Shown here: positions 1,069 through 59,042 of the stretch, one piece after another
Layout: every line of letters starts with the position of its first letter
Numbering within the stretch: the first letter of the stretch is position 1
DNA from: Escherichia phage vB_Eco_QOTSP
DNA length: 64,000 nucleotides
Sequence record: OY720014
Direction: 5' to 3' (one strand)
The notes under the pieces: model-generated
What the model was told of the DNA's origin: nothing
The model's input: only the letters and a program-made list of their open reading frames with translations
The model's database searches: none
Translations under genes and position numbers: made by a program

Positions 1069-2876
1069 TATGCAATCCTTATCCAACGATAAACTGTAAT
1101 ATATGGTTGAATGTTAGTTATTGATGTTGGCGGAGTGTGAGTAGAGTTAGTAGATGCTTTAGCTTCACGGTATTTAGTGTAAATTGGACCGGATTCATCT
1201 GGATCGTATTGACACCCACCAACAATGACTGATCCATTTTCATCAACTATTAGAACTTCTTCATCTGTTTCAGTTGCAGGAAGATTAGCATTTTCCAATG
1301 TAACAGAAGTAGAACCACCTGTTCCACCTGCAGTATGCGAAGGATTTCCACCCGAATCTAAATCGTTGTTATTTAGAGCAAAGTTAGGGTCCGAAATATC
1401 TTCATTCCATCCAACTAAAACTTTTCCTTGCCCAAATAATTTCCATGAGCCGAATCCCATATATGTAACAGGGTTATTTGGATTAACAGCGTTTTCATAT
1501 ATAGTTCCAATAGGATAAATCGTATCAAAGATATTTGAAACAGCATTAAATTCGCGTTGGTAAGATTGAACTGCTTCTACATTTGGCCAACCAATTTTAT
1601 CGAAGTCTGTTAAATTTACATCGCCAGAAATATCTACTCCCGGTCCTTGTGATACATAGAGATTATCAGTTTCATCAATAATCTCATCTTTTGTTAATAA
1701 TGTACCCAAATCATTATTAAACCAGGTGATATTGATAATGTCACCATGCTCAAATACTCTATCGAAATGTAAAATTTCCGGTATGCCGTTTTCATCAGTT
1801 TCAACTGAATAATCGGTATGAGATTGTTCCCAAGTTCCACCTAAAACAGAGCATTCTACTTCATCGTCTGAATCGGCACCAACACAATGAAATAATGGCA
1901 TTCCAACTGTGCCAGCTAATTCCTGCAAAATTCCATTAAAACGAACCTCAAGAGAGTTAGGATTAATAGGTTCTCCTGGAATTAATCCAAAAGCAGAAAA
2001 TGGAATTGATTTCATTGTTGATAAATCAGTAACGTAAATGCTTCCTTCTAAAGAAGTTTTTGACGTTAATTTTGAATCTAACAATCTAATTTGACGTCTT
2101 GTATATGAACTTCTCCACTGCGATACACCATCCATAAATGTTTCAATTTGAACAGTGTCACCAATATTACAAGGCTGTCTTAATCGAATATTAAATCCAT
2201 CAAGAGGAACTAGTTCTCCTTCATTTTCGCCCGGAGAGCCAAAATCACTGTTTTCGCTAAACACATCGCCATAATACAATTCGTTACCACGATGTTTTAC
2301 TCTGATGTTATTTACATTATAACTGGTTCCACGGAAAACATCTAAAAAGTCTGTTTGTCCTTGGACTTCGACTAAAAATTCTTTACGAGCTACATTACTA
2401 ATGTCTGAACTGGTAATTTTGTCAATTTGTTTATTTTTGACATATTCCCAACGTCCTGGGGCACAATACACTAGTTCTAAATCGCTGAATTGAACATTAA
2501 TTTCAACTGGTACTGCAGACCCTTTAATCGTATCTCCGGAAGCAGCTACTAGTGTAACTGGGTTGACGTTCCATGTAGCAAATACGTCTCTAGCTCTAAT
2601 TACCTTGTTGTAATCATTAACTGTGCCCTTTGGAAGATTTATAGTCACTCTTCCAGAAGATGTATTAATAGCGTATGATTTTCCCCATTCTGCTGTTAAT
2701 GTTTGTCCTGATGAAGCATTATAAGTTTTCCAGGCACCGGCTGAATATGGAACATCACCATCACCGAGTTCATAATAAAGCTCATCAAAGTTTTCATTTA
2801 TTTTTATACCACCTTTACGCAGGTAGTCACCGGTACCATCATCTACAACATTACCGATATTAATATTTTGTTTCAT
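1068..2876 (-). CDS. 10: baseplate wedge subunit and tail pin gp10
   Basis: 602-aa ORF, size and sequence recognised as T4 gp10; syntenic between 11 and 9. Confidence 0.9.
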
Positions 2877-3742
2877 TATTGAGCCACCCCGATTTTCTGC
2901 GTAGCGATAACTTTAACTGCTGCTCTCATACCGACAGTTGAAGAACTTATAGTCGCCGTTACGTAATTTTCTTTAATACTAAATGCAATATTAGCGATTT
3001 CGTCTTCTTCGGTTTCATTCCCAACTCGCATGACAGCATATTCAGAAGAAATTACCTCTGAATTGACAGTATCCACAAGAATATTTATTTCTGCTGTTTT
3101 AATTTTTCTTCCATCTACTGATTGGCATGTAACTAGTAATTTAGCCATATTGTATTCAGTGCGATGAAATAGTGGAATATCAACTGATCCAGATGTAGAA
3201 ATATTCCATGTACCTTCAGCTGGTGATTCCTTTTGTCCAAACATACTTTCAATAGAATAATTCCAAACCGACGTAGAATTATCAGATGAAATACAGCGTA
3301 AAGTAACTTTACTATATGGGCTAGTTACTACTAAATTACCTGAAACACCTTTAATTGAATCAATAGCTTGAATTGTCAAAGGATTAGTAACTGATATTGA
3401 TCCGTTAGAATTAATGAATTCAACACAATCGCCGAGTTCGCCTCTTTCAATGATAACTTTAACACCTACAGTAGAGGTATCAATATCATGCCTAGTGCCA
3501 ACTTTTACTGGAGTTGCATACTCTGCAATAGAGTGTTTTTGATAATATCCAGTAGCATGGATAATTTGACCATCTGCTCCGGTGCCATTTGCTACTGCCA
3601 TTTTACGTTGATCGCCAAACGCATTATAAATTGCGTTAAAATCACTATTAATTTTATTACCACCGTCGAATAAGATATCACCAGTAGAAGCGTTACCAAT
3701 TTCGCCGGTATCAATCAATTTCTTTGGTTCTTGAATGAACAT
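2876..3742 (-). CDS. 9: baseplate wedge, long-tail-fiber connector gp9
   Basis: 288-aa ORF MFIQEPKKLIDTGEIGNASTGDILFDGG, matches T4 gp9 size and position. Confidence 0.9.
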   Translation of the reverse strand: MFIQEPKKLIDTGEIGNASTGDILFDGGNKINSDFNAIYNAFGDQRKMAVANGTGADGQIIHATGYYQKHSIAEYATPVKVGTRHDIDTSTVGVKVIIERGELGDCVEFINSNGSISVTNPLTIQAIDSIKGVSGNLVVTSPYSKVTLRCISSDNSTSVWNYSIESMFGQKESPAEGTWNISTSGSVDIPLFHRTEYNMAKLLVTCQSVDGRKIKTAEINILVDTVNSEVISSEYAVMRVGNETEEDEIANIAFSIKENYVTATISSSTVGMRAAVKVIATQKIGVAQ

Positions 3743-19175: not shown

Positions 19176-19248
19176 TGGGAATTAGCCAAGTTGGTAAGGC
19201 ACTGGATTTTGATTCCAGGATGCAAAGGTTCGAGTCCTTTATTCCCAG
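19176..19248 (+). tRNA. tRNA-Gln (anticodon UUG)
   Basis: Cloverleaf: acceptor tgggaat/attccca, anticodon loop ttTTGat, T-loop TTCGAGT; CCA not encoded. Confidence 0.85.
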
Positions 19249-19249
19249 C

Positions 19250-19336
19250 GCGAGAATGGTCAAATTGGTAAAGGCACAGCACTTAAAATGCTGCGGAATG
19301 ATTTCCTTGTGGGTTCGAGTCCCACTTCTCGCACCA
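19250..19336 (+). tRNA. tRNA-Leu (anticodon UAA), long variable arm
   Basis: Acceptor gcgagaa/ttctcgc, anticodon loop ctTAAaa, long variable arm, encoded CCA. Confidence 0.85.
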
Positions 19337-19341
19337 AATTT

Positions 19342-19415
<74 letters not shown>

Positions 19416-19461
19416 ATTTATGACTCGTCGTGAGACGCTCAGTTCTTTATTAGGGACTGAT

Positions 19462-20070
19462 ATGCATTTTTATCTTTATAAAATAACAAATAAAATTAAT
19501 AATAAAATTTATATTGGTGTGCATTCTACCGAAAATTTAGATGATGGATATATGGGTTCTGGTAAATTATTAAAAAGAGCCCAAGATAAATATGGTATAG
19601 AAAATTTTTCTAAAGAAATATTAGAGTATTTTGACGATAAAGAATCTATGCTTGAAGCCGAGAAAAATATTGTCACAGAAGAGTTTTTAAATAGACCAGA
19701 TGTGTATAATTTAAAACTTGGAGGTGAAGGTGGATGGGATCATATAAATAATTATCCTATGACAGATCAGCAACGCGAATTAATTTCATTGGGTGTTAAA
19801 AAGGCGCATTCTAACGGAAAATTAAAAGGATGGTCTTCAAATGGATTAATGAAGAATGGCTTTGCTGGTAAAACTCATTCTCAAGAAGCTAAACGTAAAA
19901 TAGCAAAAGCAAACGAAGCAAAAGTTTCTGCGGATGAAAGAAAAAGAAGAATAGAAATTTCTAAATTATATGATTTTTCTAAACGTGGCGAATTGTCTAA
20001 ATATGCTAAGCATATTGGCGTAAGTCATACTCAAGCAAAAAGAATTCTAAATCAAATTAACAATATATAA
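19462..20070 (+). CDS. GIY-YIG homing endonuclease (SegB-like), inside the tRNA cluster
   Basis: ORF track 19420..20070; N-terminal YLYKITNKINNKIYIGVH ... GYMGSG is the GIY-YIG motif; likely start at M15 (19462). Confidence 0.8.
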   Translation: MHFYLYKITNKINNKIYIGVHSTENLDDGYMGSGKLLKRAQDKYGIENFSKEILEYFDDKESMLEAEKNIVTEEFLNRPDVYNLKLGGEGGWDHINNYPMTDQQRELISLGVKKAHSNGKLKGWSSNGLMKNGFAGKTHSQEAKRKIAKANEAKVSADERKRRIEISKLYDFSKRGELSKYAKHIGVSHTQAKRILNQINNI

Positions 20071-20076
20071 ATATTT

Positions 20077-20166
20077 GGAGGCGTGGCAGAGTGGTTTAAT
20101 GCACCGGTCTTGAAAACCGGCAGTCGCTCCGGCGACTCATAGGTTCAAATCCTATCGCCTCCGCCA
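20077..20166 (+). tRNA. tRNA-Ser (anticodon UGA), long variable arm
   Basis: Acceptor ggaggcg/cgcctcc, anticodon loop ctTGAaa, T-loop TTCAAAT, encoded CCA. Confidence 0.85.
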
Positions 20167-20172
20167 GTTTTT

Positions 20173-20248
20173 GCTGATTTAGCTCAGTAGGTAGAGCACC
20201 TCACTTGTAATGAGGACGTCGGCGGTTCGATTCCGTCAATCAGCACCA
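20173..20248 (+). tRNA. tRNA-Thr (anticodon UGU)
   Basis: Acceptor gctgatt/aatcagc, anticodon loop ctTGTaa, T-loop TTCGATT, encoded CCA. Confidence 0.85.
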
Positions 20249-20249
20249 A

Positions 20250-20324
20250 GGCCCTGTAGCTGGAAGGTTCAAGCAAGCGACTCATAATCGCCAGATGGTG
20301 GTTCAATTCCACCCAGGGCCACCA
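20250..20324 (+). tRNA. tRNA with anticodon CAU (Ile via lysidine by analogy with T4, or Met)
   Basis: Acceptor ggccctg/cagggcc, anticodon loop ctCATaa, T-loop TTCAATT, encoded CCA. Confidence 0.75.
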
Positions 20325-20333
20325 AATTAATTT

Positions 20334-20420
20334 GGGGAGTTATCCCGTAGAGGTAGCGGTGTGGACTGTAAATTCATTGTCATTGCGACTCGGGTGGTTC
20401 GACTCCACCACTCCCCACCA
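20334..20420 (+). tRNA. tRNA-Tyr (anticodon GUA), long variable arm
   Basis: Acceptor ggggagt/actcccc, anticodon loop ctGTAaa, variable arm gtc-attgc-gac, T-arm ggtgg-TTCGACT-ccacc; D-arm region atypical. Confidence 0.65.
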
Positions 20421-20424
20421 ATTT

Positions 20425-20499
20425 GGATGTGTAGCTCAATGGCAGAGCGATCGCCTGTTAAGCGATTGGTTATAGGTTCGAATCCTATCACGTCCGCCA
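20425..20499 (+). tRNA. tRNA-Asn (anticodon GUU)
   Basis: Acceptor ggatgtg/cacgtcc, anticodon loop ctGTTaa, T-loop TTCGAAT, encoded CCA. Confidence 0.8.
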
Positions 20500-20613
20500 A
20501 ATTTGTGACAACTGTCACATTAATATCTACTTGACGCGATTATAGGGGTTGAACTGATCACTCTTCTCTTAATTTCGTGTGAAGACATCTTGATTGTTGG
20601 AGTAGGTATTAAT

Positions 20614-20689
20614 GTGGCCGTAGTTCAGTTGGTAGAACTCGAGATTGTGATTCTCGTAGTCATGGGTTCGACTCCCATCGGTCACCCCA
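20614..20689 (+). tRNA. tRNA-His (anticodon GUG)
   Basis: Acceptor gtggccg/cggtcac, anticodon loop ttGTGat, T-loop TTCGACT, encoded CCA. Confidence 0.8.
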
Positions 20690-20693
20690 ATTA

Positions 20694-20769
20694 CGGGGCA
20701 TAGCTCAGAAGGAAGAGCAAGGACCTTCTAAGTCCTAGGTCGTAGGTTCGATCCCTACTGCCTCGACCA
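20694..20769 (+). tRNA. tRNA-Arg (anticodon UCU)
   Basis: Acceptor cggggca/tgcctcg, anticodon loop ctTCTaa, T-loop TTCGATC, encoded CCA. Confidence 0.8.
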
Positions 20770-43202: not shown

Positions 43203-44129
43203 ATGAAAACTCGTAAACATTATATTGATTATTTTGACAGTCTTATTACTAAACATCGTGATTATCAGATAGGACACAGAGCAGTAATCAATAATATTCT
43301 TCGTGATTTTTTAGATTATACTGGACAGGAAAATCATATCTGTAAGGATACTCAGAATGCGTATTCACAATCTCTTGGTTCTTTACTTGAGTGGTTCAAG
43401 CGTTCTCGTGTGTTATCTTCTACTGTAGCTCGTGAGAACATTAAAAAATTTATGTATCCAAGCTACATTGAGACTAATGTATCAAATGCTAGTGTTGTTA
43501 CATTTAATATTATTAACGACGTGAAAAGAACTTATTTAGAAGAATGGTTTTCTAAAAATAGTAAAGAAAAATTTACTAGTGAGTTTTCACGCGAATTCAA
43601 TAATAACGTGAATATGCTTTTTAAGCATTCTCGTAGACTGTTTTGTCATGGCGATGATCGTACTATTAATGTGAATGTAAAAGACTGGGTTACGGCTAAA
43701 TTCATTCCATCATCCCAGAATAAATCATCTGAATTATCAGTTATTATCTGTGCTCCGCACGAGATATATAAAAATCTTCCGTATATGAAACCGCGTGAAG
43801 CTAATAAACACAATGAAACAATTCGTTCTTTGACTTATAATTTGCGTATGTTATTATCTAAAATGGATGTAGTTGAATCCTTTGATGATAATACAAATTA
43901 TGGTCTTTCGTTGTTTGAAACTAAAGTTGTTATTAAGTTAAAGGACCCTAGTGAATTTAAACCTACGTCAAAACCCAATCATGGGAATGATACTATGAAA
44001 GAAGAACGCGAATATCTCAATACTCGTTTGATTGAAGTTGAAGCCCAAATTGCAGAACACACCAAATTGTTAAAAGCTCTTAATGCAAAAGCAAATGGTT
44101 TACGTAATGCTATTGAGGTATTGAAATGA
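43203..44129 (+). CDS. hypothetical protein with C-terminal coiled coil (array member 4)
   Basis: 308 aa; C-terminal ...[31 protein letters not shown]. Confidence 0.6.
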   Translation: MKTRKHYIDYFDSLITKHRDYQIGHRAVINNILRDFLDYTGQENHICKDTQNAYSQSLGSLLEWFKRSRVLSSTVARENIKKFMYPSYIETNVSNASVVTFNIINDVKRTYLEEWFSKNSKEKFTSEFSREFNNNVNMLFKHSRRLFCHGDDRTINVNVKDWVTAKFIPSSQNKSSELSVIICAPHEIYKNLPYMKPREANKHNETIRSLTYNLRMLLSKMDVVESFDDNTNYGLSLFETKVVIKLKDPSEFKPTSKPNHGNDTMKEEREYLNTRLIEVEAQIAEHTKLLKALNAKANGLRNAIEVLK

Positions 44130-44515
44130 AAAAGCGTCTATTAGAAGATATTGCAGCTTCTAGTAATTCCAGTCTAATTAAAATTATTATGGCTGGTGAA
44201 GAAGACGATCTGGAAATGCGTGGAAAGATTCACGGCTGCGACGATTTAGATTTTAAACCTCCAGCATGGGATGCTATTATGGCTATGGTTGAACGACGTG
44301 AAAGAGCTTCTAAAAACGTTCCTAATTGCCCTGAATGCGGTACTGAACAAGTTCAATTGATTAACTGGCGTAAACCAGAGCTTGAATATAAATGCCGTCA
44401 TTGTAAACATAAATTTAATAAGCATGCTCCGGAAATGGTTAAATTGCCTGACTCTACTGAGTTCTTTAAAGAACTTGTGAGTGTTCAACCAATGCCTAAT
44501 AATATTTTGGATTAA
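44126..44515 (+). CDS. zinc-ribbon protein
   Basis: 129 aa; CPECG ... CRHCKHKF Cys4 zinc-ribbon arrangement. Confidence 0.6.
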
Positions 44516-44517
44516 AA

Positions 44518-44760
44518 ATGACCAAGCGTAAAGAATATATGGAGACTGCTAAAAAGGCAGTCCGTGAATTAGCAATAGCTTATTATAATGAACATGGTAA
44601 ATTTCCTGATAGATACAGCGTGCTTAAATCTGCTTTAACTCGTTCATATAAAAATATGCTATCAGAAGTAAGTGATATTATATACAAACATAAAGAACAA
44701 ACGGGCCAAAGTCTTGATTACGACGAGACTTTTAAACAAGTACTAGGAATTAAGGAATAA
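44518..44760 (+). CDS. hypothetical protein
   Basis: 80-aa ORF directly upstream of nrdC. Confidence 0.55.
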
Positions 44761-44761
44761 T

Positions 44762-45025
44762 ATGTTTAAAGTATATGGTTATGATAACAACATCCATAAA
44801 TGTGTGTATTGCGATAATGCAAAACGTCTTTTGACTGTGAAGAAACAGCCGTTTGAATTTATCAACATTATGCCGGAAAAAGGTGTTTTTGATGATGAGA
44901 AAATTGCTGAGCTTCTGACTAAACTGGGTCGTGATACTCAAATTGGCTTGACGATGCCTCAAGTATTTGCTCCTGATGGAAGTCATATTGGTGGATTTGA
45001 CCAATTGCGGGAATACTTTAAATGA
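44762..45025 (+). CDS. nrdC: phage thioredoxin/glutaredoxin NrdC
   Basis: 87 aa; MFKVYGYDNNIHKCVYCDNAKRLL with CVYC active site, recognised as T4 thioredoxin. Confidence 0.95.
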   Translation: MFKVYGYDNNIHKCVYCDNAKRLLTVKKQPFEFINIMPEKGVFDDEKIAELLTKLGRDTQIGLTMPQVFAPDGSHIGGFDQLREYFK

Positions 45026-45237
45026 TGCTCGAAGGAACTGACTATATTCATGATTACCGCGGAAGCGCGGTATATGTAGGTGATGAAGTTGCAGTTTATT
45101 ATGGGTATGGAACTTTGATGACAGCAAAGGTTATTCAAATTAAAAATAATCGTGCTAAACTTGAAGTTTATTATTCTAATGGTGAAAAGTCTATTTCTAA
45201 GTGGAAATACGGCGATTGTATGGTCAAACTGGGGTAA
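45022..45237 (+). CDS. hypothetical protein
   Basis: 71-aa ORF overlapping nrdC stop. Confidence 0.5.
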   Translation: MMLEGTDYIHDYRGSAVYVGDEVAVYYGYGTLMTAKVIQIKNNRAKLEVYYSNGEKSISKWKYGDCMVKLG

Positions 45238-45239
45238 AT

Positions 45240-45410
45240 ATGATTTACGATATTAATGTAGCAAAAGCTCCGTCAATGGTTACTATTCCTGCTGAAGAAC
45301 TAGATCGTCTTCATAAAATTGAAGAACTTCTTTGGGAAATTGAATCTGATTTGCCATCAGGATTAGAATCCTGGATTGATTATGAAGAACTTAATAAGCT
45401 TCGGGGTTAA
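45240..45410 (+). CDS. small acidic protein (56 aa)
   Basis: ORF track 45201..45410 trimmed to ATG 45240. Confidence 0.45.
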   Translation: MIYDINVAKAPSMVTIPAEELDRLHKIEELLWEIESDLPSGLESWIDYEELNKLRG

Positions 45411-45532
45411 ACCTTGGTGGGCGGCTAGATGGGAAACTGTAGAGCCAGAGCCGGAAGAACCGGTTTACACTGATGAAGAAACAGTATATAATGAACCAAC
45501 GATAAATGACTTAATTGATATGGAGATGGGAC

Positions 45533-46018
45533 ATGATTACAGTAGATAAGTGGTTTAGAATTAATCGTGCTGATACAGGGCTGTGTAATTACTGGCCGGA
45601 ACTTAGCGCAGGTACTGTCTTTAAAGTTCGTGAACTTGCAAAAGAATGTGAAGATGATATAGAGCCTGATACTGGAATTATTGAAATTGAACTTTCCGAC
45701 GGAAAGATTATTAATATCTATGATAAGCCAATTACGTATTGGTGCTTGTGGAATACTGAATCAGTAGAAAATGGCGAAATTGAAGAAGTTGTAGATAGAA
45801 CTAATCAAGTTGTTCAGAAGCCTAAAGCTGATTTTCAAGGTGAACGTATTTCATACGCATTAGCTAAATTAGCTGCACAAGAAAATAATGATGGCTATGA
45901 AGGAAATTTAATGCAAGCTGCCGCAGAGTACATTGAATGGCTTGAAACTCAAATTTCTTTTTCTGACCGAATGATTCAGCAATATAAGCGATTGCATCAA
46001 ATGTTTTACAATACTTGA
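45533..46018 (+). CDS. hypothetical protein; size and position consistent with T4 Pin (tentative)
   Basis: ORF track 45515..46018 trimmed to ATG 45533 after GGAGATGGG; 161 aa, lying between nrdC and 49. Confidence 0.5.
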   Translation: MITVDKWFRINRADTGLCNYWPELSAGTVFKVRELAKECEDDIEPDTGIIEIELSDGKIINIYDKPITYWCLWNTESVENGEIEEVVDRTNQVVQKPKADFQGERISYALAKLAAQENNDGYEGNLMQAAAEYIEWLETQISFSDRMIQQYKRLHQMFYNT

Positions 46019-46060
46019 AAATAATAAATACCCTTATCTATTTAAGGTAAGGGTTTTATT

Positions 46061-46534
46061 ATGTTATTGACTGGCAAATTATATAAAGAAGAAAAACAAA
46101 AATTTTATGATGCACAAAACGGTAAATGCTTAATTTGCCAACGAGAACTAAATCCTGATGTTCAAGCTAATCACCTCGATCATGACCATGAATTAAATGG
46201 ACCAAAAGCAGGAAAGGTACGTGGATTGCTTTGTAATCTCTGCAATGCTGCAGAAGGTCAAATGAAACATAAATTTAATCGCTCTGGTTTAAAGGGACAA
46301 GGCGTTGATTATCTTGAATGGTTAGAAAATTTACTTACTTATTTAAAATCCGATTACACCCAAAATAATATTCACCCTAACTTTGTTGGAGATAAATCAA
46401 AGGAATTTTCTCGTTTAGGAAAAGAGGAAATGATGGCCGAGATGCTTCAAAGAGGATTTGAATATAATGAATCTGACACCAAAACACAGTTAATAGCTTC
46501 ATTTAAGAAGCAGCTTAGAAAGAGTTTAAAATGA
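46061..46534 (+). CDS. 49: endonuclease VII (Holliday junction resolvase) gp49
   Basis: 157 aa; CxxC ... HLDHDHELNG ... CNLCN motifs; T4 gp49 size. Confidence 0.92.
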   Translation: MLLTGKLYKEEKQKFYDAQNGKCLICQRELNPDVQANHLDHDHELNGPKAGKVRGLLCNLCNAAEGQMKHKFNRSGLKGQGVDYLEWLENLLTYLKSDYTQNNIHPNFVGDKSKEFSRLGKEEMMAEMLQRGFEYNESDTKTQLIASFKKQLRKSLK

Positions 46535-48348
46535 CAATTGAAAAAGAAATTGAAGGATTGATTCATAAAACTAATAAAGACCTTTTAAACGAGAATGCTA
46601 ATAAAGATTCTCGTGTTTTTCCAACTCAACGGGACCTTATGGCTGGTATTGTGTCTAAACACATTGCCAAAAATATGGTCCCGTCTTTTATTATGAAAGC
46701 GCATGAAAGCGGAATTATCCATTTCCATGATATTGATTATTCCCCTGCTCTTCCATTTACTAATTGCTGTTTAGTAGATTTAAAAGGAATGCTTGAGAAC
46801 GGATTTAAGCTTGGTAATGCGCAGATTGAAACTCCTAAATCAATCGGTGTTGCTACTGCAATTATGGCACAAATTACTGCGCAAGTTGCTTCCCATCAAT
46901 ACGGCGGAACGACTTTTGCTAATGTAGATAAAGTACTTTCTCCTTATGTTAAACGCACCTATGCAAAACATATTGAGGATGCAGAAAAATGGCAAATCGC
47001 TGATGCGTTGAATTATGCTCAATCTAAAACAGAAAAAGACGTATACGATGCATTCCAAGCTTATGAATATGAAGTAAATACTCTCTTTAGTTCAAACGGG
47101 CAAACACCTTTTGTAACAATTACATTTGGTACGGGAACTGACTGGACTGAACGAATGATTCAGAAAGCAATTCTGAAAAATCGTATTAAAGGTCTCGGTC
47201 GTGATGGGATAACTCCTATTTTTCCTAAGCTTGTTATGTTCGTCGAAGAAGGCGTTAATCTTTACAAAGACGATCCGAGCTATGATATTAAGCTGCTTGC
47301 TCTAGAGTGTGCAAGCAAAAGGATGTATCCTGATATTATTTCAGCTAAGAACAATAAAGCTATTACTGGTTCATCTGTTCCTGTTTCTCCAATGGGTTGC
47401 CGTAGTTTCTTGAGCGTATGGAAAGATTCGACTGGTAATGAAATTCTTGATGGACGTAATAATCTTGGTGTTGTAACACTGAATCTTCCTCGTATTGCAT
47501 TAGATTCTTATATTGGAACACAGTTCAATGAACAGAAATTTGTTGAATTGTTCAATGAACGAATGGATTTGTGTTTTGAAGCTTTGATGTGTAGAATTAG
47601 TTCCTTAAAAGGAGTTAAAGCGACTGTTGCTCCTATTCTTTACCAAGAAGGTGCATTTGGGGTTCGTCTTAAACCTGATGACGACATAATTGAGTTATTT
47701 AAAAACGGTAGAAGTTCAGTGTCTTTAGGATACATTGGTATTCACGAATTGAATATTCTTGTCGGTCGTGATATTGGACAAGAAATTTTAACTAAAATGA
47801 ATGCCCATCTTAAACAGTGGACTGAAAGAACCGGATTTGCTTTTAGTTTATATTCGACTCCTGCTGAAAACCTTTGTTATCGCTTCTGTAAACTTGATAC
47901 AGAAAAATATGGAAGTGTAAAAGATGTTACCGATAAAGGCTGGTACACTAACAGTTTCCATGTTTCAGTAGAAGAAAATATTACTCCGTTTGAAAAGATT
48001 TCTCGTGAAGCGCCATATCATTTCATTGCGACAGGTGGTCACATTTCTTATGTTGAACTTCCTGATATGAAAAATAACCTAAAAGGTCTTGAGGCTGTAT
48101 GGGATTATGCTGCACAACATTTAGATTATTTTGGTGTTAACATGCCGGTAGATAAATGTTTTACATGCGGAAGTACCCATGAAATGACTCCTACTGAAAA
48201 CGGATTTGTTTGTTCTATTTGTGGAGAAACTGATCCTAAAAAGATGAACACAATAAGAAGAACATGTGGTTATTTGGGAAATCCGAACGAACGCGGATTT
48301 AATCTCGGTAAAAATAAAGAAATCATGCATAGGGTTAAACACCAATGA
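46531..48348 (+). CDS. nrdD: anaerobic ribonucleoside-triphosphate reductase NrdD (uninterrupted)
   Basis: 605-aa continuous ORF; C-terminal glycyl-radical motif RRTCGYLG and zinc-ribbon CxxC pairs. Confidence 0.95.
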   Translation: MTIEKEIEGLIHKTNKDLLNENANKDSRVFPTQRDLMAGIVSKHIAKNMVPSFIMKAHESGIIHFHDIDYSPALPFTNCCLVDLKGMLENGFKLGNAQIETPKSIGVATAIMAQITAQVASHQYGGTTFANVDKVLSPYVKRTYAKHIEDAEKWQIADALNYAQSKTEKDVYDAFQAYEYEVNTLFSSNGQTPFVTITFGTGTDWTERMIQKAILKNRIKGLGRDGITPIFPKLVMFVEEGVNLYKDDPSYDIKLLALECASKRMYPDIISAKNNKAITGSSVPVSPMGCRSFLSVWKDSTGNEILDGRNNLGVVTLNLPRIALDSYIGTQFNEQKFVELFNERMDLCFEALMCRISSLKGVKATVAPILYQEGAFGVRLKPDDDIIELFKNGRSSVSLGYIGIHELNILVGRDIGQEILTKMNAHLKQWTERTGFAFSLYSTPAENLCYRFCKLDTEKYGSVKDVTDKGWYTNSFHVSVEENITPFEKISREAPYHFIATGGHISYVELPDMKNNLKGLEAVWDYAAQHLDYFGVNMPVDKCFTCGSTHEMTPTENGFVCSICGETDPKKMNTIRRTCGYLGNPNERGFNLGKNKEIMHRVKHQ

Positions 48349-48815
48349 ATTATGATAGATTTTATCCTTGCGATTTTGTGAATGGCCCTGGTTGCAGGGT
48401 CGTTCTTTTCGTTACAGGTTGTTTGCATAAATGCGAAGGGTGTTATAATAAATCAACATGGAATGCTAGAAATGGTATTCCATTCACTGGTGAAACACTA
48501 GAACAATTAATTGAATGTTTGAATAATGATTATATAGAAGGATTAACTATAACTGGAGGAGACCCTCTCTATCCTGATAATCGAGATGTTATTCATTGCA
48601 TTGTTCAAACAGTAAAAAATCTTTATCCCAATAAAAGCATTTGGTTGTGGACAGGATATAAATTTGAAGATATTAAACAACTAGAAATGCTTAAATATGT
48701 TGATGTTATTATTGATGGGAAGTATGATAAAAATCTTCCGACCAAAAAGCTGTGGAGAGGATCAGATAATCAGCGGCTTTGGTCAAATACCGATGGGGTG
48801 TGGAAACATGATTAA
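48345..48815 (+). CDS. nrdG: anaerobic RNR activating protein NrdG (radical SAM)
   Basis: 156 aa; CLHKCEGC radical-SAM cysteine motif. Confidence 0.92.
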   Translation: MNYDRFYPCDFVNGPGCRVVLFVTGCLHKCEGCYNKSTWNARNGIPFTGETLEQLIECLNNDYIEGLTITGGDPLYPDNRDVIHCIVQTVKNLYPNKSIWLWTGYKFEDIKQLEMLKYVDVIIDGKYDKNLPTKKLWRGSDNQRLWSNTDGVWKHD

Positions 48816-48930
48816 ATTGAATTACATTATGGATACTATAAATGATATGATTTTTCATTTTGGTCCAGAATTTTATTCGCAGTATAGTTTAGTGCTTATC
48901 AATGCTTGGTTAATCAATTAAGGGTAAAAT

Positions 48931-49146
48931 ATGTATAAATTTCGTAAAGGTTTAGCTGATTTTCTTACAACTGTAACATTCTTTTTGTTTATGGCAGTTG
49001 GAGCTATTTTCCTTATTCCTTTTATTGCTATATTTTTCGTGATTAGTTTGATTTCTCCAGAAAAGGGCTTATCTTCTAGTGAGTTCAATGAGCGTCTGGA
49101 TAAAATTACTAACAAGCTGAATTCTGTTCTTGATAAAAAGGCTTAA
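48931..49146 (+). CDS. small membrane protein
   Basis: 71 aa with two hydrophobic helices. Confidence 0.5.
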   Translation: MYKFRKGLADFLTTVTFFLFMAVGAIFLIPFIAIFFVISLISPEKGLSSSEFNERLDKITNKLNSVLDKKA

Positions 49147-49148
49147 TT

Positions 49149-49460
49149 ATGATTAGTTTTGAGCGGTATGTGGTAGAGAGTTGGAAGGGTTTTGATATGT
49201 TCGGTAATGACTATTATTTTTACGAATGTAGTCTAAATCCTAGTTTTTGGGCTGGACGTGAACGAGATCTCGAAGAAATTAATGCTCGTGCCGAATTGTT
49301 AGGTGAACTGCCTACGGTTTATTTTACCTTTGATGCATCTGGATTTGTTATCCAGGTTTATTTTCCTGAAGAAAACTCTGGTGAGGATTCTGTTAATCCT
49401 CCTTATTGGGCTTACCAAGGAATTATTTCTCGTGGAACAAAACTCGAACTTAAAGAATAA
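49149..49460 (+). CDS. hypothetical protein
   Basis: 103-aa ORF. Confidence 0.6.
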   Translation: MISFERYVVESWKGFDMFGNDYYFYECSLNPSFWAGRERDLEEINARAELLGELPTVYFTFDASGFVIQVYFPEENSGEDSVNPPYWAYQGIISRGTKLELKE

Positions 49461-49461
49461 G

Positions 49462-49755
49462 ATTGAAGTCTATGGAATTCCAGATGAAGTAGGTCGTTGT
49501 CCTGGATGTCAATCAGTTACAAAACTTCTAAAGGAGCTCAATGCTCCTTTTACTTTCTATAAAGTTCTTACTAATAATGGTAAGATTGAGTACGATCGCC
49601 CATTGATTGTATCTCTTGCCAAACGCGCCGGATTCACATCTCTTAATATTCGGTATCCTGTCATTTTCATTAATGATTCTAGACAAAAGAACATTAAACA
49701 CTTCAAAGAAACTCTCATTTCACTTGGATATGATAGAGATATCATAGAAGATTAA
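49462..49755 (+). other. glutaredoxin-like coding segment with no in-frame ATG/GTG/TTG start (possible frameshifted or fused gene)
   Basis: Frame reads KIEVYGIPDEVGRCPGCQ... (Grx fold, CPGC); the only in-frame start is GTG 49303 inside the upstream gene in another frame. Confidence 0.4.
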
Positions 49756-55819: not shown

Positions 55820-56006
55820 CATTAATGATGAATTCATAGCAAATATTGATTATATCGAAGAAGATTCTAGATATGTTGGAATAATTTACATTACATCAAA
55901 AACAGCACAAGGCGTTGTTTGCATGGCTGAATTTGACGAATACTTTTTAGATTATGATGATATGATAGAATGGTCTAAAAGATACATTAAAAGGAATCTT
56001 TTGTGA
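55791..56006 (+). CDS. hypothetical protein
   Basis: ORF track 55743..56006 trimmed to ATG 55791; 71 aa. Confidence 0.45.
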   Translation: MHTVKFSTFDINDEFIANIDYIEEDSRYVGIIYITSKTAQGVVCMAEFDEYFLDYDDMIEWSKRYIKRNLL

Positions 56007-57691
56007 AGAATTTTAAACTAAATCGAGTTAGGTATCAAAATATAATGTCAGTAGGTGGAAATCCTATTGACATTCAATTAGATAAGGTTCAAAAAACTCT
56101 TATTACTGGACGAAATGGCGGTGGTAAGTCTACTATGTTAGAAGCCATCACATTTGGGCTTTTTGGCAAGCCATTCCGTGATGTAAAGAAAGGTCAATTA
56201 ATAAACAGCACAAATAAGAAAGAACTTTTAGTTGAACTGTGGATGGAATATGATGAGAAAAAGTACTATATCAAAAGAGGACAAAAACCAAACGTTTTCG
56301 AAATCACCGTTAACGGTACACGTCTTAATGAATCTGCCAGCAGTAAAGATTTCCAAGCAGAATTTGAACAGCTTATCGGAATGTCATATGCCAGTTTCAA
56401 GCAGATTGTTGTCCTTGGTACAGCAGGGTATACCCCTTTCATGGGTTTGTCGACCCCTGCGCGAAGAAAGCTCGTGGAAGACCTGCTCGAGGTAGGAACA
56501 TTAGCTGAAATGGATAAGCTTAATAAAGCACTAATACGTGAATTAAATTCACAAAACCAAGTGCTTGATGTTAAAAAAGATAGTATTATCCAACAAATTA
56601 AAATATATAATGATAACGTTGAACGCCAGAAAAAATTAACGGGTGACAACCTTACTCGTCTTCAAAATATGTATGATGATTTGGCAAAAGAAGCTAGAAC
56701 GCTAAAATCGGAAATAGAAGAAGCTAATGAAAGATTAGTTAATATTGTTTTAGATGAAGACCCGACTGATGCATTTAATAAAATCGGTCAAGAAGCAGTT
56801 TTAATTAAATCAAAAATTGACTCGTATAATAAAGTCATTAATATGTATCACGAAGGTGGATTATGTCCAACCTGCTTGTCACAATTAAGTTCCGGTGATA
56901 AAGTTGTTTCTAAAATTAAAGATAAAGTTTCTGAATGTACGCATTCGTTTGAACAGCTTTCAACACATCGTGATAATTTAAAAGTTCTTGTTGATGAATA
57001 CCGAGATAATATTAAAACCCAGCAGTCGTTGGCAAATGATATTCGCAATAAAAAGCAATCTCTAATCACGACGGTAGATAAAGCTAAAAAAGTTAAAGCA
57101 GCTATAGAAAAAGCATCTTCTGAGTTTATTGACCATGCTGATGAAATAGCACTGCTTCAAGAAGAACTTGATAAAATTGTTAAGACAAAAACTAATTTAG
57201 TAATGGAAAAATACCACCGAGGAATTTTGACTGATATGCTCAAAGATTCTGGTATTAAAGGTGCTATTATTAAAAAGTACATTCCATTATTTAATAAGCA
57301 GATTAACCATTATCTTAAAATAATGGAAGCGGATTATGTGTTTACATTAGATGAAGAATTTAATGAGACAATTAAATCCCGTGGTCGTGAAGATTTTAGT
57401 TATGCTTCATTCAGTCAAGGTGAAAAAGCGCGAATTGATATTGCTCTTTTATTTACTTGGCGTGATATTGCTGAAAAAGTTTCAGGTGTTAAAATAAGTT
57501 GTTTATTTCTTGATGAAGTGTATGACGGTGCATTTGATGCTGAAGGTATTAAAAATGTAGCTAAAATTTTAGATGGTTTGAAGGATACCAACTTCTTCAT
57601 AATTTCACATAAAGACCATGACCCACAAGAATATGGTCAGCATATTCAGATGGAAAAAGTTGGTAGATTTAGTTTAGCTAAGATTAGCTAA
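56003..57691 (+). CDS. 46: recombination endonuclease subunit gp46 (Rad50/SbcC-like ATPase)
   Basis: 562 aa from GTG; Walker A GRNGGGKST, coiled-coil middle with CPTC zinc hook, signature SQGEKARIDIA, Walker B LFLDE. Confidence 0.93.
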   Translation: MKNFKLNRVRYQNIMSVGGNPIDIQLDKVQKTLITGRNGGGKSTMLEAITFGLFGKPFRDVKKGQLINSTNKKELLVELWMEYDEKKYYIKRGQKPNVFEITVNGTRLNESASSKDFQAEFEQLIGMSYASFKQIVVLGTAGYTPFMGLSTPARRKLVEDLLEVGTLAEMDKLNKALIRELNSQNQVLDVKKDSIIQQIKIYNDNVERQKKLTGDNLTRLQNMYDDLAKEARTLKSEIEEANERLVNIVLDEDPTDAFNKIGQEAVLIKSKIDSYNKVINMYHEGGLCPTCLSQLSSGDKVVSKIKDKVSECTHSFEQLSTHRDNLKVLVDEYRDNIKTQQSLANDIRNKKQSLITTVDKAKKVKAAIEKASSEFIDHADEIALLQEELDKIVKTKTNLVMEKYHRGILTDMLKDSGIKGAIIKKYIPLFNKQINHYLKIMEADYVFTLDEEFNETIKSRGREDFSYASFSQGEKARIDIALLFTWRDIAEKVSGVKISCLFLDEVYDGAFDAEGIKNVAKILDGLKDTNFFIISHKDHDPQEYGQHIQMEKVGRFSLAKIS

Positions 57692-58400
57692 GTTTATATT
57701 TACAGTTATCATTATGCCATCTTGATAAATTTCCGAAAGTGGTAACTTTACCACAATGGACGCAAGTACCAGTCTTTTCAGTTTTCTTGCGTCCATTTGG
57801 ATTTTTCTTGCAGAAATTTCTATGCGCTGCGATAACGCATTTCTTGCCTATCATTCCGCAGAATTCGCAGGATGTTTCTTCAAGAACGATTGCTTTAAGC
57901 CCGTTTGAGATATTATTTCTGTGTTCTTTAGACATTGGTGGTCTAACTTTAGGATTAGGGTGATTTGGGCAGTTATCAAAATGCCAACGATTCATATTCC
58001 CGCTTAATCCAGACTTACCGCAATGAGGACAAGTTAGTCTTGCTTTATTAGCTACTGCATCAGACATTTTCTTTCGTGTCTCCTGGGAGAATTCTTTATT
58101 CTTTTCTATTTCCCAGAGTTTACGACGAATCCAACCGAAAGTTTTATTGTTGCGTTTAGCGTATTTCGTAGAAACTGTCATCATGTTAGCAGCATAGACT
58201 AATTTTGGTTCAGAAGGATAAATTTTTACTAAAAGTTGATGAGCTACATAGTGCTCTTCTGGTGTTAAATCTACTAAGTTTGAAGCATCATCGCTGCCAT
58301 TTAAACAGCGTGGTATAATGTGATGAGATTCAGTATAACAATCAAGTTTTCGAGATTTAGCATTAGAGATTAACTTTTCATAAATTAGTTTATAATTCAT
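57684..58400 (-). CDS. HNH homing endonuclease with triple zinc-finger repeats (mob-like)
   Basis: 238 aa; HNH core ESHHIIPRCLNGSDDASNLVDLTPEEHYVAHQ; three C..C..WH..NC repeats; 3' end overlaps gene 46 by 8 nt. Confidence 0.8.
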   Translation of the reverse strand: MNYKLIYEKLISNAKSRKLDCYTESHHIIPRCLNGSDDASNLVDLTPEEHYVAHQLLVKIYPSEPKLVYAANMMTVSTKYAKRNNKTFGWIRRKLWEIEKNKEFSQETRKKMSDAVANKARLTCPHCGKSGLSGNMNRWHFDNCPNHPNPKVRPPMSKEHRNNISNGLKAIVLEETSCEFCGMIGKKCVIAAHRNFCKKNPNGRKKTEKTGTCVHCGKVTTFGNLSRWHNDNCKYKLS

Positions 58401-58652: not shown

Positions 58653-59042
58653 ATGACTAAAATTACTGTGAATTATACTGTTGATGTAAAAGATATTCAG
58701 CCAAAACACGTGCGTTCTGAATCAAATCCACAAAACCAAAATAAAATTCGTCGAGCATGGGTTTTGTCTCTTTCTGATAACGCAATGGAAGTTATTCAGA
58801 ACAAAATTAAATCTGCACCTGCTCGTCATGCGTATTATGAAGCTATCGATCGTGAAGTAAGTAATAAATGGATTGAACTAATGCGCAAACATACTACAGA
58901 ATCCCTAAACGCCGGTGCTAAATTTATTATGACTTCATGTGGTGAACGTCTTGAAGATGATTATTGCGGTAATGCAGATGAACGTCTAATTGTTGCTGCT
59001 CAAATTGTTGCCGAAACAATCGCAGCTGATTTTAATCGTTAA
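58653..59042 (+). CDS. rpbA: RNA polymerase-binding protein RpbA
   Basis: 129-aa ORF immediately upstream of gene 45, as T4 rpbA. Confidence 0.75.

Follow-up and report, generated by a model that had tools for sequence, protein, structure and literature searches.

The nrdD gene in the 64-kb stretch of phage DNA analysed here (the window) appears to be an intact, functional allele that was never invaded by an intron, carried by a T4-like phage (Tequatrovirus) that is not T4 itself. We put the probability of this reading at about 95%. The T4 gene is interrupted after nucleotide 538 by a group I intron of 1033 nt that encodes I-TevII, whereas the gene in the window has no intron. The decisive evidence for the absence of the intron is a gapless alignment to the spliced T4 nrdD, which leaves zero extra DNA in the window.

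The gene (46531..48348, plus strand) encodes the large subunit of the anaerobic (class III) ribonucleoside-triphosphate reductase, as judged from its ORF, its Pfam matches and its alignment to T4 NrdD. The original prediction, which was made from the sequence alone, described it as a continuous 605-codon ORF at 46531-48348, and the ORF listing agrees exactly: an ATG start is followed by an uninterrupted reading frame of 605 codons plus stop, 1818 nt in all. At the composition of the window (33% A and 32% T, corresponding to a stop-codon frequency of 0.075), a run of 605 sense codons has a probability of 3.8e-21, and over all six frames of a 64-kb window one would expect only about 5e-16 ORFs of this length. 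The Pfam NRDD profile (PF13597) matches residues 21-604 over its full length and in a single stretch (profile positions 1-562 of 562, E 5.4e-170), and Gly_radical (PF01228) matches the C-terminal domain (E 1.2e-25). The radical glycine, G580, is located in the RTCGYLG motif.

Residues 1-605 of the predicted protein align with zero gaps to residues 1-605 of the solved T4 NrdD, also known as SunY (PDB 1h78 and four other entries, 1h79, 1h7a, 1h7b and 1hk8). The two proteins are of equal length (605 aa) and identical at 601 of 605 positions (99.3%). Relative to wild-type T4, the differences are V65F, N250S, Q255L and R417Q; at position 580, the PDB chain carries an engineered A and the window protein a G. 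C79, C290, N311 and G580, together with the zinc cysteines C543/C546/C561/C564, are all present at the T4 positions, and we take the active-site Cys79, Cys290 and Asn311 and the four-Cys zinc site to have the roles known from the T4 structure. In T4, the Gly580 radical of NrdD is installed by NrdG by means of S-adenosylmethionine and an Fe-S cluster. Given the 99.3% identity to the characterised T4 enzyme, the window NrdD probably has anaerobic ribonucleoside-triphosphate reductase activity. By the same near-identity, the Gly580 radical would be passed to an active-site cysteine, ribonucleoside triphosphates would be reduced to dNTPs without oxygen, and the enzyme would supply DNA precursors when the phage infects anaerobically growing hosts. 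As a single-exon gene, nrdD would be expressed in the window phage without a self-splicing step.

Comparison with the exon-intron structure of T4 locates the empty site precisely. That T4 nrdD carries a group I intron, as had been stated, is evident both from a match to RF00028 and from the T4 record, where the gene is annotated as a two-piece join (43535..46385, 2851 nt) with I-TevII inside. A BLAST comparison of the window with T4 yields two collinear blocks, the break between them falling between window positions 47066 and 47069. The T4 intron, 1033 nt long, lies between the equivalents of window positions 47068 and 47069, and the insertion point falls inside the codon for Tyr180 (T|AT). 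The length of exon 1 (538 nt) was fixed by the T4 protein sequence together with the U...G splice-site rule: with this length, the last nucleotides of exon and intron are U and G, respectively, and translation across the splice junction gives AYEYEV, the sequence of the crystallised protein. When set against the spliced T4 CDS, the window gene matches base for base over 1818 nt with 59 mismatches and no indel (96.75% identity), and exon positions 538 and 539 are directly adjacent in the window. The 59 differences are silent or near-silent and include a T4-specific cluster at +8 to +20 from the insertion site. An alignment of this kind had been proposed as the check on the supposed lack of an intron; it is gapless, and the 1033 nt are absent. 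By alignment to T4, therefore, the window has an empty group I intron insertion site at 47068|47069 (plus strand; the interval from -10 to +20 is 47059..47088).

The same site is occupied by a second type of group I intron in the nrdD of phage JEP6 (1045 nt, positions 2039..3083 of its locus). The JEP6-type intron shares 66% identity with the T4 intron in total and 83% within the core, hairpins being altered in a compensatory manner, and its ORF encodes a GIY-YIG/NUMOD protein resembling I-TevII. For both intron types, the conserved target peptide AFQAYEYEVNTLF and the insertion position are the same as in the window, but the element itself is absent from the window. The JEP6-type intron is present in 44 phage records (JEP6 and 43 others), as compared with 25 for the T4 type, and about 316 further records match it only in part, at high identity. 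In databases, nrdD genes with this intron are often annotated as two separate nrdD ORFs.

Among phage records, 883 contain matches to nrdD, 692 of them at 90% identity or more. The 91-nt junction of the window is uninterrupted in 589 phage records, with 100% identity in slur03 and 97.8% in T2, and 13 of the 25 records with the T4-type intron are T4 isolates or derivatives. In IMG/VR, 20 loci encode a relative, and the gene is continuous in 19 of them, 11 of which are distant (77-79% amino acid identity); the single split locus is broken at residue 180/181 and has a T4-type intron inside. Roughly nine in ten related phages are thus intronless at the nrdD site. Because the site is uninterrupted in 589 phage records and in 19 of 20 IMG/VR loci, distant relatives included, the intronless nrdD is the common and probably the ancestral state. 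In intronless Tequatrovirus phages (AndreasVesalius, T4_ev151, RB27, AR1, slur03, T2, RB32 and others), nrdD is likewise an uninterrupted gene of 1818 nt, with 97.5-98.5% nucleotide identity to that of the window, and nrdG adjoins nrdD directly in these relatives (AndreasVesalius, T4_ev151, RB27 and so on), as it does in the window. However, AndreasVesalius and OMNI12 have a homing endonuclease annotated beside nrdD, and the window has none there. No record contains an nrdD identical to that of the window, the best match being 98.5% over the gene.

That the nrdD intron occurs in some T-even phages and not in others was already recognised in the late 1980s, and the sporadic distribution of T4 introns among these phages is a textbook subject in the field of mobile group I introns. 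An intron-free nrdD in a T4 relative is therefore ordinary and already well known, and it is the intron of T4 that is the exception. In agreement with this, it was reported that the nrdD intron is present in only some T-even phages (PMC3653736), and that the T4 introns are distributed variably among T-even phages, T4 being an outlier in its homing-endonuclease content (PMC2988022). A by-product of the present analysis is a quantitative picture of the rarity of the intron in present databases.

The sequences flanking the empty site bear on its history. Mismatches to T4 are unevenly spread: the window and T4 are identical from -148 to -3 and differ at -2, and nine further mismatches fall in the interval from +8 to +38. 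When eight intronless close relatives are included, six of the nine (+8, +11, +14, +15, +17 and +20) prove to be silent changes peculiar to carriers of the T4-type intron, and the other three (+32, +35 and +38) to be ordinary polymorphisms. From +8 to +20, the window has the consensus of the intronless relatives and none of the six T4-specific changes. JEP6-type carriers show a separate cluster of changes in exon 1, from -20 to -8, which is not found in the window either. Position -2 (window 47067) is an A in the window (GAA, Glu) and a G in both types of intron-bearing allele (GAG, Glu). The A is also present in 18 intronless relatives with an alignable junction, eight close and ten distant; an eleventh distant relative (L015) was missed by the motif search and stands outside this comparison. 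The G at -2 pairs with an element shared by the two introns, GCUCAU, in a predicted P1-like helix (AUGAGU/GCUCAU) with U.G at the 5' splice site. This helix is the predicted minimum-energy fold in both intron contexts and is gone when the G is replaced by the A of the window; it is a prediction for a short hairpin, with z-scores of only -2.2 and -0.9.

The flanks of the window site bear no footprint of a former intron, and a never-invaded allele is therefore favoured over the loss of an intron. The main alternative is a secondary, precise loss, in which an ancestral intron of the T4 or JEP6 type was excised precisely, for instance when the gene recombined with cDNA made from spliced mRNA. Intron loss is included in models of the homing-endonuclease life cycle (PMC2988022), and the reading frame across the site is perfect. 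However, such a loss would keep the exon haplotype that is linked to the intron, and the window has neither the G at -2, nor the changes from +8 to +20, nor the JEP6-type cluster from -20 to -8; its flanks match the consensus of the intronless relatives. Moreover, among the intronless records of the phage collection, none has a T4-like junction (94.5% is the highest identity over the full length), and the distant relatives are intronless as well. Precise loss is already disfavoured on these grounds, and we consider it quite improbable. The never-invaded state is read from the flank haplotype, and the outcome would look alike if the site had been invaded long ago and the whole region had then been replaced by recombination with an intronless phage. 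A search of the distant nrdD clades for a donor of the T4 exon-2 haplotype found none; from +1 to +22, these clades are no closer to T4 than they are to the window.

The empty site at 47068|47069, with the consensus sequence of uninvaded phages, would be a potential homing recipient upon co-infection with an intron-carrying phage. The recognition sequence of I-TevII, which we take to be GCTTATGAGTATGAAGTGAACACGTTATTC, presumably spans -10 to +20, with cleavage some 13-15 nt to the 3' side of the insertion point. Of these 30 positions, 7 differ in the window, among them +14 and +15, on either side of the presumed cut. Theoretically, natural intronless alleles may be poor substrates for I-TevII, and the T4 haplotype from +8 to +20 may be a co-converted footprint of the intron donor rather than the product of neutral drift. 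We regard this as a speculative and rather doubtful proposal; if true, it would account for the small number of phages that carry the T4-type intron.

Judging from nucleotide similarity and collinear gene order, the phage belongs to the genus Tequatrovirus. In reverse orientation, the window is collinear with T4 positions 56449->38679. The best matches to a 24-kb region are RB51, RB68, UFV05-11, PhiZZ30, Aplg8 and others, at 96.6-97.1% identity over 98-99% of its length; no record matches this region at 99% or more, and none is near-identical. The original prediction took the missing intron as an indication that this DNA is not T4 itself. The conclusion holds, since nrdD is only 96.75% identical to that of T4 at the nucleotide level, mobC is missing, nrdG is 77% identical and the best matches are to other Tequatrovirus phages. 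The intron, however, discriminates T4 from non-T4 only weakly: its absence alone says little because the uninterrupted state is that of the majority of relatives. Stronger evidence comes from the 59 substitutions in nrdD, the missing mobC and a sharply different nrdG haplotype.

The same data bear on the possibility that the window represents T4, or a laboratory derivative of T4 with an engineered deletion of the nrdD (sunY) intron. In such a derivative, one would expect a protein closely similar to T4 NrdD (here, 99.3% identical) and a collinear gene order, both of which are seen. However, the density of substitutions (59 nucleotide differences in nrdD) refutes this origin. In addition to the intron, mobC is absent, and 107 of the 471 nt of nrdG differ from T4; other DNA stands in place of genes 49.2/49.3, and an additional ORF follows nrdG. 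The best 24-kb matches, moreover, are other phages at about 97%, none reaching 99%. Taken together, these differences leave a T4 origin with a negligible probability. For annotation, the practical consequences of the non-T4, never-invaded reading are that nrdD is a simple single-exon CDS, that 47068|47069 is an empty homing site and that the phage is confirmed as a T4 relative; there is little beyond this.

Direct searches of the window for an intron or its endonuclease gave the same picture. At the gathering score, Rfam reports no group I intron in the whole window, where its sole matches are nine tRNAs, and in 45500-49500 there is no group I signal (RF00028) even at E<=10. As positive controls, the T4 nrdD intron and the intron of an IMG/VR relative (L020) each scored 105 bits. 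The T4 and JEP6-type intron sequences have no blastn match in the whole 64-kb window, and I-TevII and the JEP6 endonuclease have no tblastn match in it at E<=1e-3. A group I core within the ORF, the finding that would have spoken against an intact gene, was thus not detected by Rfam, which is not fully reliable here. The JEP6-type intron goes undetected by RF00028 both at the gathering level and at E<=10; because Rfam misses a real and related intron, its negative result was downgraded to supporting evidence only. That the Rfam group I model misses a widespread second type of nrdD intron is a by-product of mild usefulness. The demonstrable blindness of Rfam to the JEP6-type intron, even at E<=10, might leave a place for a cryptic intervening element inside the ORF, either a divergent group I intron or an intein, but this extremely improbable reading is already refuted by the gapless alignment: there is no room for such an element in a gene whose 1818 nt match the spliced T4 CDS, whose residues match the crystallised 605-aa T4 protein and whose Pfam match is one unbroken stretch.

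The neighbours of nrdD in T4 also include gene 49 upstream and nrdG downstream. In the window, gene 49 (endonuclease VII; 46061..46534, plus strand) was identified from its ORF, its matches to the Pfam families Endonuclease_7 and Endonuc-dimeris, and a gene order that is the same as in T4. Its stop codon overlaps the nrdD start (ATGA), in the sequence ...AGAAAGAGTTTAAAATGACA, and an AAGAG element resembling a Shine-Dalgarno sequence lies about 8 nt upstream of the nrdD ATG. Downstream, nrdG (48345..48815, plus strand), encoding the radical-SAM activase of NrdD, was recognised from its ORF and from matches to Fer4_12 (E 3e-48) and Radical_SAM; the nrdG start and the nrdD stop overlap in the sequence ATGA (48345-48348), within the junction CACCAATGAATTATG. 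Genes 49, nrdD and nrdG thus form a tightly packed unit with ATGA overlaps at both junctions, an arrangement compatible with co-transcription and translational coupling of the three genes. A scan of 45400-49300 for promoters and terminators found fewer promoter-like sites than in shuffled sequences and nothing informative for nrdD.

In T4, mobC is located between nrdD and nrdG, whereas the window has no mobC. All the close relatives sampled share the nrdD-nrdG arrangement of the window. The nrdG genes of the window and T4 differ at 107 of 471 nt (77% identity), and the differences are concentrated in nucleotides 96-297. Over this interval, T4 nrdG shares only about 55% identity with the window and with all ten close relatives compared (nine IMG/VR loci and JEP6), the rest of the gene being nearly identical. 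T4 is the odd one out in nrdG, and its diverged patch coincides with the presence of mobC. The patch may be a footprint of MobC, left either by co-conversion or by its target site; the target of MobC has been listed as unknown (PMC2988022). In addition, the N-terminus of T4 MobC, MNYDRIY, is the same as the first residues of NrdG.

Several other features of the window were noted, the first two being stretches that do not align to T4. First, a stretch of 382 nt (45027..45408) with ORFs of 71 and 69 aa replaces T4 genes 49.2/49.3, which occupy 626 nt in T4. Second, an extra stretch of about 324 nt (49132..49455) lies between a 55.8-like ORF and nrdH and is associated with a 103-aa ORF (49149..49460); JEP6 has a hypothetical gene in a similar position. 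Third, a 238-aa ORF (57684..58400, minus strand) lies on the strand opposite to its neighbours, flanked by a 562-aa gene-46-like ORF (56003..57691) and a 129-aa ORF (58653..59042). By tblastn, its product is 37% identical to T4 MobC over 136 aa (E 8e-20), and it has a weak Pfam HNH match (16.9 bits, below the cut-off). The ORF probably encodes a free-standing homing endonuclease of the HNH type. Finally, the nine tRNA genes detected by Rfam (59-74 bits) form a cluster at 19176..20766 on the plus strand, in a position corresponding to the tRNA region of T4, where T4 has segB.
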